A stretch of DNA of 64,000 bases from a virus (lineage: Duplodnaviria; Heunggongvirae; Uroviricota; Caudoviricetes), in the IMG/VR virus record IMGVR_UViG_2579778842_000003. The stretch is one strand, 5' to 3'. The notes under the pieces were generated by a model, which saw only the letters and a program-made list of their open reading frames with translations, made no database searches and was not told the origin of the DNA. Below, in pieces: positions 228 to 10,800 of this stretch (the first letter of the stretch is position 1; the number at the start of each line of letters is the position of its first letter). The position numbers and the translations under genes were made by a program.

Positions 228-383
228 TTACCTTTCAGATTCGTAGGCTGTGAAGACAGTGACCTCCGTCTGGCCGGTTCGGATTCGTACCTCGCAGAGG
301 TCTTTCCTCGTTACCAGTGCCGTCACAATGACGGTTAGACAGATGACGATCAGAGCGATTAACATCGCTTTTTGCTGCTTCAT
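228..383 (-). CDS. hok: Hok/Gef-family type I toxin (51 aa, below the ORF-track cutoff)
   Basis: Manual translation of minus strand gives MKQQKAMLIALIVICLTVIVTALVTRKDLCEVRIRTGQTEVTVFTAYESER, which closely resembles Gef/HokC as recalled; single TM helix plus conserved RKDLCEV motif. Confidence 0.7.
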   Translation of the reverse strand: MKQQKAMLIALIVICLTVIVTALVTRKDLCEVRIRTGQTEVTVFTAYESER

Positions 384-441
384 AGCCTGCTTCTCCTTGA
401 CCTTTTGGTCGGTAAGAGGCTAATCTACGTATGCTAAGCAT
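235..441 (-). CDS. mok: Mok-like overlapping leader ORF (translational coupler for hok)
   Basis: 68-aa ORF in a different frame that starts upstream of hok and overlaps almost all of it, the classic hok/mok arrangement. Confidence 0.4.
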   Translation of the reverse strand: MLSIRRLASYRPKGQGEAGYEAAKSDVNRSDRHLSNRHCDGTGNEERPLRGTNPNRPDGGHCLHSLRI

Positions 442-520
442 AGATATGGCCTCAGATTAATGTTAAGCGTCTTGCAGGACGCGTAATGTTATCTGGGGCT
501 TTCTTCTATCTGCTTTTCGG
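400..520 (+). ncRNA. sok: Predicted Sok-like antisense RNA region (boundaries approximate)
   Basis: Inferred from hok/mok architecture only: an antisense RNA would be expected opposite the mok start and leader. No promoter was mapped with confidence. Confidence 0.2.
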
Positions 521-564
521 GTCATGCCTGAAGCAGATAGCCTCAAGCACCCGCAACGATTGTA

Positions 565-3952: not shown

Positions 3953-4009
3953 AGTTACGGCCTCACAATCAGGTTTAACAACCTGCTACCCGCTGTCAAA
4001 CAGGTGGCA

Positions 4010-4100
4010 GGACGTGACAGGGTTGACAGACTGGCGATTGTGAAACCAGCAGGCCGAAGCCTCCCCATCACGCCCCACCATAATTTGGGCGTAACGCGGT
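4010..4100 (-). ncRNA. c4: c4 antisense repressor RNA (approximate position)
   Basis: Direct repeats cacaatca and gctgtcaaac occur at 4148-4170 and again at 3964-4001 over the icd RBS; complementary segments (gattgtg, ggttgacag) lie between them at about 4021-4042, matching the c4 a'/b' versus a/b target logic. Confidence 0.35.
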
Positions 4101-4266
4101 TTAACGGACACAAAAATACCGCAATATCGGAAATCTGCGGTTGTCCGCACAATCATTCAGGCTGTCAAACCTGGTCGCAGAATTTGCTACGACGGCGAAA
4201 CTATAAGCCTGAACGATTAAAAGGTCAATATGATGCGAAAAGATAGCATTCGCGACTTAAAAATAC

Positions 4267-4283
4267 AAATTTATTAGAGCAGG
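4267..4283 (-). promoter_or_regulatory. C1 operator (Op51-like) at the immI promoter
   Basis: aaatttattagagcagg, 15/17 to the operator consensus. Confidence 0.55.
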
Positions 4284-4564
4284 TGAGCGTAGTGCAATAG
4301 ATGTATTATTTGTGATGAAAAATAATGCAGAGGGATATTGTTACTTTAAGATGGATATCAATAGTCGATACATAAATTAAGTTAGCAATAAACTATTAAC
4401 TTAAGAAATAATGCAGATGGTGAACTTATCTCTGACTTTTCAGCTATACACAATAAGTTAGGGATAGCTTATAAAAAGTTGATTATTTGATATAAGTCAA
4501 TGGGAGTATTCTTGTTTACTTTCCGTTCTCGTGGTAACTTCTCGCCGGTTTTTGTTTTTCTGGG

Positions 4565-5086
4565 ATGATTCTTATGTCTAAAAAGTATACTTTATGCGCT
4601 CTTGTTGTATCTGCAATTCTTCTTTCTGGGTGTCAATCTAGCGGTGCTGATTATGCTGCCGATGTTTATGATACCGCTCAATTGAATTCGAAGCAGGAAA
4701 CAAAGACAGTCAATATTATCTCTGTGCTTCCAGCTAAAGTGAAAGTTGATAATAAAGCTAATAAAGAAGCGGCACAGACATTTGGTGCGGTACTGGGAGC
4801 TGTTGCTGGGGGCGTTGCCGGTTATAATGTTAAAGGCACATCGACACTGGGTGCTGTAGCTGGCGGTACTGGTGGTGCGGCTCTTGGTGCAGCGGCTGGT
4901 TCTTTGGTTAGTGATAAAACAATTGTTGAAGGTGTTTCACTGACTTATAAAGAAGGAACTAAGGTGTTCACTTCAACTCAAGTTGGTAAAGCATGCCAGT
5001 TTACAACGGGGCTTGCTGTGCTTATTTCAACTAAAGATAATGAAACTCGAATTCAGCCAAATGCTACTTGTCCAGAAAAGAAATAA
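4565..5086 (+). CDS. Lipoprotein with glycine-zipper region (SlyB/Pcp-like)
   Basis: Signal peptide with lipobox LLSGC; Gly/Ala-rich AVAGGVAG and GAVAGGTGGAALGAAAG repeats; AT-rich gene divergent from immI. Confidence 0.65.
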   Translation: MILMSKKYTLCALVVSAILLSGCQSSGADYAADVYDTAQLNSKQETKTVNIISVLPAKVKVDNKANKEAAQTFGAVLGAVAGGVAGYNVKGTSTLGAVAGGTGGAALGAAAGSLVSDKTIVEGVSLTYKEGTKVFTSTQVGKACQFTTGLAVLISTKDNETRIQPNATCPEKK

Positions 5087-5089
5087 TTT

Positions 5090-5629
5090 ATGAATAAAAT
5101 TATTTTATTTCTAATCTTTTCTACGTTTAGTGTAGGCACTGCCTTGGCTAACTCGTTGCAAAGTCAAATTGCTGCTATTGCTCAAGCGGAAAATGAAGGG
5201 CGAGCTAAAGAGCAGCAAGCTGAGGATGCCAGAAAAGAACTTATTCGCCAACAAGCACAAGCTGAACGTATTAGAAGAGAAAAAGCAGCATCTGCCGCTG
5301 CTGCACGCGAAAAACAGCGTGTTGCTGCAGAAAATGAACGTAGAGCGAAACGAGAAGCCGAGCTAGCAAATGACAAGAAGCGAGATCAAGCTTATGAGGA
5401 TGAGCTTCGCAAGCTGCAACTCGAAAGCATGAAACTCGAACTGCAAGCAAAAGCGGCTCGTGTCCAGCGAGAAAACGATTTTATAGAGCAGGAGTTGAAG
5501 GAGAGAGCAGCTAAGACAGATGTAATTCAGTCTGAGGCTGATGCAAATAGAAATATTTCTACAGGAAGTAAAGATTTACTGCAAAGCGAAGGAAAAGCTA
5601 GAGAGAAGAAAGCTAGCAGTTGGTGGTAG
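5090..5629 (+). CDS. Secreted charged coiled-coil protein
   Basis: N-terminal signal peptide (LFLIFSTFSVGTALA) followed by a long E/R/K/A/Q-rich helix; AT-rich, probably co-transcribed with the lipoprotein. Confidence 0.6.
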   Translation: MNKIILFLIFSTFSVGTALANSLQSQIAAIAQAENEGRAKEQQAEDARKELIRQQAQAERIRREKAASAAAAREKQRVAAENERRAKREAELANDKKRDQAYEDELRKLQLESMKLELQAKAARVQRENDFIEQELKERAAKTDVIQSEADANRNISTGSKDLLQSEGKAREKKASSWW

Positions 5630-5668
5630 TAATCACTACGATTGCGAGCATACTGTCACAAATGACAA

Positions 5669-6276
<608 letters not shown>

Positions 6277-7875: not shown

Positions 7876-10800
7876 ATGGAAAGAAAAAACGCCAACATTG
7901 ACGATGTGATAAGGACGGTTGAAACCGCCAGCGCAAAAGAGCTGGAAGAGCTTGCAGGTATTCGGGAAGCCGTTGAAGATTTGAAAGGTGGGCGAGTTGC
8001 TACAGTTGATCCTGTCTCTCGCAGTGTGTCGGCATTAAATCGCACAATCGAAAATTCCCGGCCAGACTTTGTGGCCAATGCGCCATCAGTGGACCCTATT
8101 GTTGAGGCAATGAAACGGCTTAATTTAGGGGACGTTTCTCGTGTAGTTCAGGAGGATGTTGCTCTACAGGAACCGCAGGCCAAATCAACTACGCGAAAGG
8201 GTAAAAAACGACGCAAGAAGGCTATAACAGAAGATGTAAAGGCGCAACGGACCGAAGCAGCCGAACACGCTCGCGAAATGTTCGGTCAAAAAGGCGGTGC
8301 GCAAAAAAGCCAAAACCAACGCGATGCGCGTGGTCGTTTTATTGGAAAGTCAGGGAGTAAGGCCGCAGCGGAAGATGCCCGTGCTGAACGTGCTGAAAAG
8401 GCCAGGCGCAAAGAGGATGATGAGCGTCTAAATGCTGAATCAGGTTTATTAAAAAAACTGTCAAAAGTAGCTGAAGGCATAGGTAACCCTTCAGAGACTC
8501 GTGCCGTCGATGCGTTAGGTTATGCCGTTGCTGGTCCATTGTGGGCAGCAGGGAAGGAGCTTGGCGGGATATCAAAAGAAGTTGGTGGATCGCTTAATGG
8601 TGCCAGAAAGTCTATTGCCGATGTGATTCGTGGCAATGACGATAACAGCCGTAGAAAAGGTTTTTTTAGGCGTAAATCGCAAAATAGTGCCGATGTCGTT
8701 CAGGTTAACACCCAAAAACGGACGGTTCAGGAACTTCAGGAGCAGACCAGCGAAATTAAAGAGGGCAATGACAAGATTCTCCGTGCCCTTGATCAGATAG
8801 CCAAAAACACCGGGAAAAAGAAGGGCGGCTTGCTGTCCAAACTATTTAGCCTGTTAGGGAAGGGGGCCGGTGGCGTCGCGTCGTTGTTAATGGGGCGTGG
8901 CATGCTGAAAAAAGCTGGAGCACTCGCTTTTGGCGCTCTGGGGGCAAAGAAACTTGTAGGAATGCTACGCGGTGGTGGCAAGAAGACTCTCGCCCATGAA
9001 GGCGGAGATTTGGCTGCCCGGGCAGCAGGTAAACTTGGATTAAAGGCAGTTGGTAAAGGGGCGTTACGCGCAATTCCCCTAGTCGGCACAGTGGCTGGAG
9101 GTATTTATGATGCGGTAACCGGTTGGAATGATACAGAAGCGCAACGTCGAGCGTTTGGGCTTAAATCAGGACAAGATCCATCATTCCAGCAAAAAGCCGC
9201 TTATACGTTAGCTAATGTTCTTGATATGGGGGGACTGGTATCTGGTATTAGCAGCGCCATTGGTGAGGCTCTCAAATCACTTGGATTTGAGGATATCGGC
9301 AATATGTTGCAATCATTTTCGACGGAAAGTATTGCCCAGGCCATTGATAGTGGGATTACCAACTTAGAAACATATATTTCTAACCTTGGCGACACCATTT
9401 CTACCAAGTTCGATGATTACACAGCAAAGATTGGTGATGCTGTTTCAGCATGGTTTAGCGATACATCTAATAAGTTGCTTGAAAAGCTGGATGCCATAAA
9501 AGACTTCTTTACTGTCGATAACCTGAAACAGGTTTTCAGTGATGCAATTGATAGTGTAATTGACTTCATTAAGAACCCAGGGAAACACATTAAAGAGGCG
9601 GCTGGTAATATTTGGGATGGGGTTAAAAATTTACCCGGTAAAGCATTAGATGCAGCGGTTGATGCCGTTAAAAATACCCCTGCGGCAATGATTGTATCAA
9701 AAATACCCAATCCGATCGGCGAGGCTAATGCGAAAGAAATCACTCCAGAGTTAAAAGCTCCGGTTAATAGCCACCAGGAGACGTCTAATTCTAAAACTGA
9801 ATCCGATGCCAAACAGAGTAATATTGCTACCCGCGTGATAAATGCGGCACTGGACACAGCGAAAGATAGCAATAAAACAGTTAAACAAACTGCCAATCAG
9901 ATTATCAATGCAAATGCCGTAGAAACGGGCAATAGCGCGTTGCAGAAAATTGATAAAGCTATTGGTCAAAATAGCTCGTCATCATCCTCGCTTAATACCA
10001 CTGGCACCAGGAATGACATTCAGAAAGCTGCGGATACCTACAATAATGGCAACTTGGATGTAAAAGTCGGAAGTCTTGGCGCTGAAGGTAAGGCAAATCT
10101 CGATAAGTTGGCTCCGTATTTTGCTGAACTAGAGAATAAATATGGCCTTCCTGAAGGTACTCTTTACGCGATCGCTGCAACTGAATCTGGTGGTGATCCT
10201 AACGCAAAATCTACGCTTACAAGATCACCAAATGGAAAGCTAAGTGGTGGCGCTCTCGGAATGTTCCAGTTTACGAGCGTTGCTCGTGAGGAAACTGGAT
10301 TATCCCGGGAAGATTCTTTTAATCCGGAAAAATCGGCAGAAGCTGCGGCTCTTCTCATGAGCAAGTATCTGAAGCAAGCCAATGGAGACTTAAACGAGGC
10401 CATCACTGCATATAACGCTGGGTTTGGCACTATCAATAAGTGGAAAAAAGGCACAGGTGACTTATCGAAAGAAAACCGTGAGTACGCGATCAAGGTCAAT
10501 ACTCATCGTGCTCGCTATTTAGGTGGTGAAATCTATACACCTGGAGCAGGAGCACAGGGTGGGGCGCAATATGGAGTGAGGGGACCACTGCCTGATAACG
10601 CTGTTATCGATCAGTCTACTGGCTTGGCGTTTACCCCTGGTGATAGCCCGTTTGAGAAAGGCGGTCTGGTAGACAAAATCGGCAATGCTGTTGGCGTTAA
10701 CGATCTGGTCAACAAATTCATGAATGGCCGGGGTATGCGTCGGGAAGTCGTTCAGGGAACGCTCGAAGAACGTGCGCGAGGGAAGGGGACCGCAACAGCA

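Follow-up and report, generated by a model that had tools for sequence, protein, structure and literature searches.

The sim Slot and the Borders of the Cassette

The window (the whole stretch of 64,000 nucleotides that was analysed) is a P7-type P1-like phage-plasmid with 99% identity to P7, SJ46, RCS47 and JL22. When it was aligned with P1 and P7, the P1 superimmunity genes simA-simB-simC proved to be swapped exactly for a different cassette (~4284–5656, plus strand), lying between the C1 operator Op51 as its left border and the late promoter LPsit as its right border. The cassette carries two genes: a yfgH-like gene (4574..5086, plus strand; annotated upf50.5 in P7) for a SlyB-family glycine-zipper lipoprotein of 170 aa, and a yfgI-like gene (5090..5629, plus strand; upf50.0 in P7) for an exported DUF5384 protein of 179 aa, whose ORF begins 3 nt past the yfgH-like stop. 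Both ORFs lie on the plus strand, as a sequence-only reading of this DNA had described them.

On the left, P1 homology stops at 4283, the last position of Op51 (Oc4; 4267..4283, minus strand), which was placed by transfer of the P7/P1 annotation and matches the operator consensus with 2 mismatches; the same junction is found, identically, in a diverged allele of the cassette (L035). The C4 RNA (4000–4085, minus strand) and its a1/b1 targets (4154–4206, minus strand) were also located to the left of the cassette, so the earlier description of a gene pair diverging from immI, beside c4 and Op51, holds. On the right, the alignment with P1 and P7 shows a cassette-specific 3' tail (5630..5656, plus strand), and P1 homology is back from ~5657. 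The backbone here supplies LPsit (5659..5678, plus strand; P7/P1 annotation transferred by alignment) and, between the cassette and pmgC, a stem-loop with 18-nt arms that is conserved in P1 (5663..5709, plus strand). Its fold energy is -24.9 kcal/mol (z -4.7) and its U-tract is weak; possibly, it stops or stabilises transcripts of the cassette.

The yfgH-Like Lipoprotein Gene

The ORF at 4565–5086 would give 173 aa from the annotated alternative start at 4565; ATG 4574 (170 aa) is the likelier true start, since diverged relatives have kept the block GGGATGATTCTnATG. The lipoprotein call of the sequence-only reading was confirmed: the signal MSKKYTLCALVVSAILLSG leads into an LLSGC lipobox with predicted cleavage before CQS, at a Cys20 that is invariant across 36 homologs. 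By the established rule for Lol sorting, Gln at +2 directs a lipoprotein to the outer membrane, and the Gln that follows Cys20 predicts this destination for the yfgH-like product.

The protein is 67% identical to K-12 YfgH over its full length (E 6e-73) and keeps all 35 family-invariant columns, including Cys141/Cys166 and the NETRIQPN motif. The glycine zipper that had been proposed stays below threshold as a Pfam match (18 bits vs 24), but a profile of the protein's family matches SlyB from end to end. Searched against SlyB (7OJF), this profile gave an hmmsearch E of 1.8e-9, with residues 9–162 aligned to 6–153 of 155. SlyB was also the top Foldseek match (E 6.4e-6, TM 0.52/0.61) and the sole significant fold match of the lipoprotein model, a monomer model of low confidence (pLDDT 54). 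Together, the comparisons show a product laid out as a strand, a two-helix glycine-zipper hairpin and a beta domain in which a pair of Cys is conserved. The label “DNA methyltransferase” (phrog_1277; RefSeq entries of P7, SJ46 and RCS47) is an annotation error, the protein being a 170-aa lipoprotein.

The yfgI-Like Gene

The product of the second gene matches the Pfam family DUF5384 (PF17358) at 147.8 bits (cut-off 25) and is 47% identical to K-12 YfgI over its full length; the DUF5384 C-terminal motifs are shared with K-12 YfgI and all invariant residues are kept. Its sequence begins with a Sec-type signal peptide, MNKIILFLIFSTFSVGTALA, with a predicted cut before N, an A-L-A cleavage signal and not a membrane anchor. 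The mature protein is 41% charged, and AlphaFold2 (AF2) modelled residues 3–178 as a single continuous helix (pLDDT 88), so that the predicted mature protein is one charged helix of ~155 residues, ~23 nm in length. Of the earlier description of this protein, the signal peptide and the high charge stood up, while the coiled coil did not, since the heptad signal is weak. A PDB sequence search with the DUF5384 protein returned no match.

The Leader and Its Direct Repeat

The leader (4284..4573, plus strand) has a GC content of 0.32. Counted from 4284 to ATG 4565 it measures 281 bp, the length originally given, and 290 bp if ATG 4574 is the start. It turned up in 164 E. coli genomes, at 95–100% identity and always inside the P1-like cassette; two diverged copies, L035 and L006, allowed partial comparisons. 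No sigma-70 consensus promoter was found on the plus strand of the leader, no C1 operator within 4284..4573 and, by eye, no σE-type site in the leader; a relaxed promoter scan of it gave weak candidates only, with the AATAAT of the repeat described below as -10. A PhoP-like half-site (TGTTTA) was considered and set aside as too weak for a claim.

A direct repeat had been reported at about 4318 and 4416; it does exist, but the exact copies of AAATAATGCAGA lie at 4320–4331 and 4406–4417 (both plus strand). The first holds AATAAT and the ATG of a 16-codon mini-ORF (4325–4375, plus strand), and the second, an exact copy, likewise opens a 16-codon mini-ORF (4411–4461, plus strand); a third copy of AAATAATGCAGA (29208) is no more than the ordinary start of a gene. 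The leader repeat is more than chance: when the leader was shuffled 2000 times with its dinucleotides preserved, 0.5% of the shuffles had an exact repeat of at least 12 nt, in a test that was made post hoc. In the alignment it is not kept as a repeat in diverged L035 or L006. The AATAAT of the second copy (4407–4412) is a candidate -10 element because it aligns with a perfect TATAAT in L035, and the best-conserved block of the leader in the alignment with L035 and L006, TTGATATAAGTCAATGGGAGTATTCTTGTTTA (4487..4518, plus strand), which is palindromic in L035, is a candidate regulatory site. An origin of the leader by tandem duplication was discarded: TRF gave no result, and pairwise alignment recovered nothing beyond the 12-mer and a short stretch of TAAGTTAG.

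Composition, Spread and a Second Allele

Both ORFs have a GC content of 0.42–0.44, with a GC3 of 0.24 (yfgH-like) and 0.31 (yfgI-like), as compared with a GC of ~0.48 and a GC3 of 0.43–0.53 in the flanking phage genes; taken with the GC of the leader, these values support the AT-richness described in the sequence-only reading. The cassette is held, at 99% identity or more and almost clonally, by ~167–168 of ~496 P1-like plasmids (~34%), 22 of the carriers coming from Salmonella, and it is present in ~3% of complete E. coli genomes. Its foreign composition, its absence from P1 and its restriction to about a third of P1-like plasmids fit the “cargo-like” character ascribed to it; the pair is accessory and missing in P1, and does not belong to the conserved backbone morphogenetic genes. 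Of the proposal that it forms a superinfection-exclusion or envelope module, the envelope part is sustained by a predicted outer-membrane lipoprotein together with an exported helical protein (exclusion is weighed below): the cassette is real accessory envelope cargo.

Further mobile copies of yfgHI occur in islands flanked by IS elements and integrases, and beside a P2-like prophage tail module. A low GC3 is common to all of them, members of this mobile clade are 68–92% identical among themselves and only 47% identical to core YfgI, and the adjacency of yfgH and yfgI is kept in K-12 and in every mobile copy examined. Two sets of apparent phage carriers were rejected. The record of phage TL-2011b, a would-be third phage carrier, ends in the K-12 layout (pdeF fragment, small ORF, yfgG, yfgH, yfgI), which makes its copy a piece of host DNA at the edge of a prophage; ~55 IMG/VR contigs with 47% matches exactly at contig ends are likewise host DNA at prophage boundaries.

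Purifying selection on the cassette genes is strong, with a dN/dS of 0.06–0.07 for the yfgH-like gene and 0.04–0.13 for the yfgI-like gene (0.04–0.13 overall). The same slot of a near-identical backbone also holds an anciently diverged second allele, L035; its dS is 1.5–3.2 where that of the backbone is 0.01–0.07, a difference that points to an exchange of alleles and to selection for yfgHI cargo. We found no literature on upf50.5 or upf50.0 and, beyond the listing of the slot as a variable region, no study of sim-slot occupants.

Comparison With Known Envelope Systems

The closest named system is the chromosomal yfgH–yfgI operon, which lies beside guaA and is present in 5420 of 5426 E. coli genomes: the two genes, their order and their tight coupling are the same, and the lipobox, glycine zipper, Cys pair, NETRIQPN motif and DUF5384 C-terminal motifs are shared. 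The phage pair differs from it in occupying the sim slot, in having an unrelated leader and in its GC3 (0.24/0.31 vs 0.43/0.50 for the chromosomal genes). SlyB (PDB 7OJF/7OJG), a PhoP-regulated lipoprotein that forms outer-membrane nanodomains, has the same layout of strand, helical hairpin and beta domain, but is ~25% identical to the yfgH-like lipoprotein and has no YfgI-like partner.

SimA, SimB and SimC of P1 share with the pair their slot and orientation, the export of their products and their status as non-essential accessory cargo; Sim, however, comprises three genes and no lipoprotein, and it alone is known to have an exclusion phenotype. TraT (IncF surface exclusion; PDB 9FSM, 9FS5, 9E2V) is, like the yfgH-like product, a mobile-element lipoprotein assigned to the outer membrane, and its alpha-helical membrane domain forms rings. 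The likeness covers a Gly-rich hairpin and the following TST..G strand (hhalign 89.8%, E 1.8e-6, 73 columns, values that the Gly/Ala-rich composition may inflate). Against the Pfam model PF05818 the yfgH-like protein scores 23.1 bits, below the gathering threshold of 31, over profile positions 74–160 of 214, and the fold comparison of its model is not significant (E 0.2–0.5, TM 0.17–0.25); TraT itself has 243 aa and an extracellular ring domain, whereas the yfgH-like protein is 73 residues shorter and lacks this domain. We have therefore rejected membership in the TraT family, which fails both the Pfam threshold and the fold test and leaves only a remote modular similarity.

Cor and Llp are prophage-encoded outer-membrane lipoproteins expressed in lysogens. 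Their sole likeness to the pair is a signal-peptide-level PHROG match (E 0.022, residues 10–54), size and fold being unrelated; the Cor and spanin readings were both dropped, as their PHROG matches are confined to the signal peptide. No PADLOC model matched either protein at E ≤ 1.

Possible Functions of the Gene Pair

Outer-membrane stabilisation would be the default function of the phage-borne pair, which has the housekeeping yfgH–yfgI operon as its close paralog. It seems to us somewhat better than an even bet (about 55%) that the cassette is a two-gene operon of a mobile, AT-rich yfgH–yfgI lineage, serving as a lysogenic-conversion envelope module that acts like host YfgHI. Host YfgH keeps the outer membrane stable when it is stressed by SDS/EDTA or in its biogenesis, relieves envelope defects when overexpressed, binds porins, LptD and BamA, is present at ~7 copies per cell absent stress, and is reported to be non-interchangeable with its paralog SlyB (bioRxiv 10.64898/2025.12.22.696046); S. 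Typhimurium lacks yfgHI orthologs (PMC11619404). In a lysogen, the phage lipoprotein would put its hairpin into the outer membrane and build SlyB-like rings around lipid/porin patches, as proposed for host YfgH, with the YfgI-like helical partner acting alongside it from the periplasm. The prophage copy would in this way add outer-membrane-stabilising activity, in a context where host YfgH is very scarce unless the cell is stressed and some Salmonella have no operon at all; the outcome would be lysogenic conversion of the envelope, and envelope remodelling would be what lies behind any effect on incoming phages, colicins or conjugation.

Several points run against this reading. E. coli hosts already have yfgHI, which leaves the gain from a second, diverged copy hard to see; the monomer model of the lipoprotein is of low confidence; and the leader has no consensus promoter. 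AT-rich DNA like that of the cassette is frequently silenced. There are also hints, in that the Sim occupants of the slot act in superinfection exclusion, of a role more specific than general envelope hardening.

That more specific role could be superinfection or surface exclusion, with the pair a functional stand-in for Sim, an explanation that we consider possible but on balance unlikely. The SlyB-like rings and the periplasmic rod might mask or immobilise outer-membrane receptors; alternatively, they might keep the injection machinery (Sit) of incoming P1-like or other phages from getting through, in analogy to TraT and mating-pair formation. The location makes exclusion plausible: the cassette sits exactly at the simABC position, and every alternative cargo of the slot starts with signal-peptide proteins. 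Position alone is nevertheless weak evidence, because P1-like variable regions carry unrelated cargo (PMC9603915). One SimA variant contains 47 residues that copy a part of Sit (937–979; 49% identical, E 6e-9), which suggests a slot specialised in interference with injection; however, neither protein of the pair resembles SimA, SimB or SimC in sequence (E above 0.3 throughout; best BLASTP E 0.33), the match to Cor (phrog_1119, E 0.022) covers the signal peptide only, and the PADLOC search was negative. The exchange of two anciently diverged alleles into near-identical backbones is a pattern typical of conflict loci, but dN/dS is uniformly low and no diversifying selection was seen. A likeness to TraT also speaks for exclusion: 33 of 34 family members touch its Pfam model, all below threshold, and hhalign gives a probability of 90% over the hairpin and next strand, which the Gly/Ala-rich composition may again inflate. 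Porins, LptD and BamA, the partners of host YfgH, serve as phage receptors; the receptor of P1, on the other hand, is the LPS core and not a porin, and a housekeeping role is the default for a 67%-identical paralog. Bolder still is the idea that mobile yfgHI cassettes form an unrecognised class of envelope exclusion systems, in which a SlyB-like outer-membrane ring and a rod across the periplasm take over the function of Sim in a third of P1-like phage-plasmids, and which shares hairpin ancestry with TraT; this we regard as doubtful.

The pair could also be a passenger with no current phage role, a hitch-hiking or H-NS-silenced island fragment kept only by its linkage to immI. The AT-rich leader without a recognisable promoter fits such an origin, as does the dispensability of sim in P1 (PMC10695390), and the spread of a near-clonal cassette (at least 99% identity in ~167–168 plasmids) could simply mirror the success of the backbone. 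Against it stand the strong purifying selection on the mobile lineage (dN/dS 0.04–0.13), in which no invariant residue has been lost, the two arrivals of the same kind of cassette in this slot, as very diverged alleles, and the better conservation among carriers of the ORFs (at least 99% identical) than of the leader (mostly 95–99%); we consider it quite improbable.

A spanin-type lysis or egress device, which would disrupt the outer membrane as the lytic cycle closes, is suggested by the superficially similar architecture (a lipoprotein plus a long periplasmic helix) and by a weak PHROG match to an Rz-like spanin (E 0.038), but it seems far-fetched. This match spans the signal peptide only (residues 10–67), the lipoprotein is a 170-aa SlyB fold and not a short o-spanin, and the helical protein carries an A-L-A signal for cleavage in place of a membrane anchor. 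The orthologs belong to the core chromosome and sit in no lysis cassette, P1 lyses without the pair, and the pair lies upstream of LPsit, not downstream.

Implications for P1-Like Phage-Plasmids

The cassette is found in ~3% of complete E. coli genomes and in about a third of P1-like phage-plasmids, a group that is important in the carriage of mcr-1 and ESBL genes. If it does harden the outer membrane, as the envelope-module reading holds, it would alter the tolerance of the host to bile, detergents, chelators and some antibiotics, a type of lysogenic conversion not yet ascribed to P1-like elements. If it excludes phages instead, it would open a way to study the mechanism by which SlyB-type nanodomain lipoproteins can gate the outer membrane, and would link them to TraT; were mobile yfgHI cassettes an exclusion class of their own, lysogens would be shielded from incoming phages, conjugation or colicins, and mobile elements would have turned repeatedly to glycine-zipper ring lipoproteins as a means of exclusion. 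The cassette also provides a natural series of diverged alleles for dissecting YfgI/DUF5384.

Identity of the element and of the gene pair

The window is a P1-like phage-plasmid of the P7 type: P7, SJ46, RCS47 and JL22 match the 1.5 kb around the gene pair at 99.0–99.5% identity and the E. coli plasmid NZ_CP010146 matches it at 100%, while the match to P1 covers the first 82 bases only. ORF checks and the P7 annotation place both genes described in the sequence-only reading on the plus strand, a lipoprotein gene at 4565/4574–5086 (P7 upf50.5) and a second gene at 5090–5629 (P7 upf50.0). To their left, on the minus strand, lie the C4 antisense RNA (4000–4085), its a1/b1 targets (4154–4206) and the C1 operator Op51 (4267–4283); to their right are the late promoter LPsit and then pmgC, tub, pmgB and sit. 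The C1 operator consensus, at up to three mismatches, matches the window nine times (2606, 4267, 31729, 35578, 47947, 48030, 48494, 52767 and 63969) vs. 0.4 expected by chance, giving a map of the C1 regulon of the element. A sok antitoxin RNA near the window start (378–552, minus strand; Rfam RF01794, 114 bits) indicates a hok/sok post-segregational killing locus.

ATG 4574 is favored as the start of the lipoprotein (170 aa) because the ribosome-binding block is kept in diverged relatives, and the lipobox is present as reported (LLSG-C). The protein is collinear end to end with K-12 YfgH (67% protein identity, E 6e-73) and keeps all invariant residues of the family, whose profile matches SlyB (PDB 7OJF/7OJG) over its full length (E 1.8e-9). 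The AlphaFold monomer has the SlyB layout, but at low confidence (pLDDT 54), and SlyB was its sole significant Foldseek match (E 6e-6, TM 0.52/0.61). Host YfgH is reported to keep the outer membrane stable when cells face SDS/EDTA or biogenesis stress and to be very scarce without stress, and it has been modeled as SlyB-like rings (December 2025 preprint, bioRxiv 10.64898/2025.12.22.696046). The label “DNA methyltransferase” on this lipoprotein (4574–5086), carried by RefSeq P7, SJ46 and RCS47 (NC_050152, NC_031129, NC_042128) and by phrog_1277 in PHROGs, is a propagated annotation error, as is “minor tail protein / tail tip protein” for the pair in phage phi456 (OR339795).

The second protein had been read as a signal-peptide-bearing, highly charged coiled coil. 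It does have a typical signal peptide (ending A-L-A) and a mature part that is 41% charged, predicted as a single unbroken helix of about 155 residues (pLDDT 88); its heptad periodicity is weak, however, so we retain “long charged helix” and drop “coiled coil.” It matches DUF5384 at 148 bits and K-12 YfgI at 47% identity (E 9e-46), collinear over the full length with all family-invariant residues kept. The sole phenotype cited for YfgI is a nalidixic-acid/DNA-damage one (PMC11619404). The identification as a phage-plasmid-borne, putatively functional YfgH/YfgI pair is secure, and the pair is accessory cargo, not a morphogenetic module.

The sim slot and its alternative cargoes

In alignments with P1 and P7 the junctions are sharp: P1 homology ends at 4283, within Op51, and returns at about 5657, in the -22 region of LPsit. 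The corresponding P1 interval holds simA-simB-simC, annotated as superimmunity; these genes are non-essential in P1 (PMC10695390) and belong to a low-GC part of P1-like phage-plasmids that is documented as variable (PMC9603915). Of the P1-like plasmids in PLSDB, about 496 in all, 167 carry the window-type cassette, every copy at 99% identity or above, and 137 carry full P1-type sim; many of the remainder have other cargo opening with a SimA-like gene. Each alternative cargo inspected starts with signal-peptide proteins, which marks the slot as one given over to exported proteins.

At least five different cargoes occupy the Op51–LPsit interval (among them L004:3091-4276, L005:3091-5348 and L002:4654-5938): P1 simABC, two diverged yfgHI alleles, a long SimA with a 159-aa protein, and a SimA-like protein with a 169-aa protein and a 390-aa SH3-domain protein. 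The 159-aa protein is a homolog of the 169-aa one (28% identity, E 8e-26). The long SimA variant (L004:3091-3738), from the sim slot of P1-like plasmids other than the window, contains a 47-residue copy of residues 937–979, in the C-terminal part, of Sit (49% identical, E 6e-9), the injection transglycosylase/tape measure encoded at 7876–11298 of the window, and shares with it a second short motif, DxxRNxPGMR (Sit 1013–1026). The variant may act in superinfection exclusion as a mimic or decoy of Sit in the periplasm, and its Sit-like segment suggests that sim-slot cargo can target P1-type injection.

A mobile yfgHI lineage under selection

The pair is a diverged version of the chromosomal yfgH–yfgI operon, which 5420 of 5426 complete E. 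coli genomes have; homolog searches gave a graded series from cassette to core gene. Copies at 92% and 78% sit in islands that also contain integrase and IS genes, and one at 68% is found with chromosomal yecD on one side and the tail-fiber end of a P2-like prophage on the other. All mobile copies have low GC3 (0.22–0.31, vs. 0.43 and 0.50 in K-12), with dN/dS of 0.06–0.13 relative to the window. Just upstream of the 92% YfgI copy (L006, chromosomal or island) is an Op51/P51-like stretch (AAAGATAGCATTGGCGGCTTAAAAACATAAATAAACCAGAG; L006:5180-5260), evidence that this cassette was captured by an island from a P1-like immI neighborhood; no C4 RNA was found at L006.

Most telling is the IMG/VR contig L035, another P1-like phage (sok, C4, ant, kilA, pmgC and tub present), with a pair 84% and 80% identical to that of the window in the same slot and with the same left junction. 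Between the two, backbone dS is 0.01–0.07 and cassette dS is 1.5–3.2 (dN/dS 0.04–0.06): one yfgHI allele has been swapped for another in a nearly unchanged backbone, which argues that the cargo is selected at the sim slot. At L035:6540-8245, an LPsit-like sequence right after the yfgI-like gene is followed by an extra 419-aa gene similar to DUF559/REase_MTES_1575 (endonuclease-like) and then pmgC; the slot seems to have taken up a second insertion here.

TL-2011b (JQ011317) and about 55 IMG/VR loci (L041–L097) were rejected as phage-encoded pairs: these sequences run out into the chromosomal yfgG-yfgH-yfgI of the host, because a prophage integrates between yfgI and guaA. Such boundary overshoot makes YfgH/YfgI proteins that phage databases present as “phage-encoded” look more numerous than they are.

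Leader and composition

The pair is AT-rich as described; the leader (GC 0.32) and the synonymous sites show this most strongly (GC3 0.24 and 0.31, vs. 0.43–0.53 for neighboring phage genes). The direct repeat reported in the leader is real, but its coordinates (about 4318 and 4416) needed correction: the 12-mer AAATAATGCAGA has exact copies at 4320–4331 and 4406–4417, and in a post hoc test 0.5% of dinucleotide-shuffled leaders gave a repeat of such length. The operator-consensus scan found no C1 operator within the cassette, and no consensus sigma-70 promoter was found on the plus strand; in a relaxed scan the top candidates take the AATAAT of each repeat copy as candidate -10. The L035 leader is missing copy 1 and has a perfect TATAAT aligned to the AATAAT of copy 2. 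The most conserved leader block (4487–4518) is directly 5' of the ribosome-binding site, and 3' of the cassette the backbone has a strong stem-loop (5663–5709, z -4.7). Both repeat copies open mini-ORFs of exactly 16 codons (4325–4375, 4411–4461), as seen in 0.7% of shuffles in a post hoc test, and leaders of diverged alleles have one too (L035:5316; L009:7356); the mini-ORFs have no conserved peptide and no Shine-Dalgarno sequence.

Function of the pair

The most economical mechanism, to which we give a probability of roughly 0.55, is that the pair acts in the lysogen like host YfgHI, stabilizing the envelope. The lipoprotein would insert into the outer membrane and build assemblies of the SlyB kind around patches of lipid and porins; the pair would in this way increase an activity that is normally scarce, or provide YfgHI to hosts without it. 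S. Typhimurium is without yfgHI orthologs (PMC11619404), and Salmonella is the source of 22 carrier plasmids.

The superinfection-exclusion module proposed in the sequence-only reading is a live rival, if a distinctly less probable one. It draws on the position in the sim slot, the exported-protein theme of that slot, the allelic exchange of yfgHI and an echo of TraT, the IncF surface-exclusion lipoprotein, but homology to exclusion systems does not support it: similarity to sim-slot proteins was absent (best E 0.33) and PADLOC gave no match for the pair. The lipoprotein scores 23 bits against the TraT model PF05818 (cut-off 31), which 33 of 34 family members touch below threshold, and hhalign aligns the Gly-rich hairpin and the TST..G strand after it at 90% probability. 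The similarity is weak but consistent; the fold match is not significant and the extracellular ring domain of TraT (PMC11733297) is absent, so that the lipoprotein is not a TraT, but the two may have an ancestral membrane-hairpin module in common. A silent passenger is improbable, being disfavored by the selection data. Cor and Rz-like PHROG matches covered the signal peptide alone, and a spanin reading is rejected.

The P7 genes have been annotated since the GenBank deposit, where similarity to E. coli lipoprotein genes was noted, and the sim region was already known to be variable. What is new is the exact allelic relation of the cassette to sim, its series of ancient alleles kept by purifying selection, the modular link to TraT, and the placing of the lipoprotein in the SlyB/YfgH family, read against the recent functional work. 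Rather than a new type of system, the finding is a testable hypothesis of outer-membrane lysogenic conversion.
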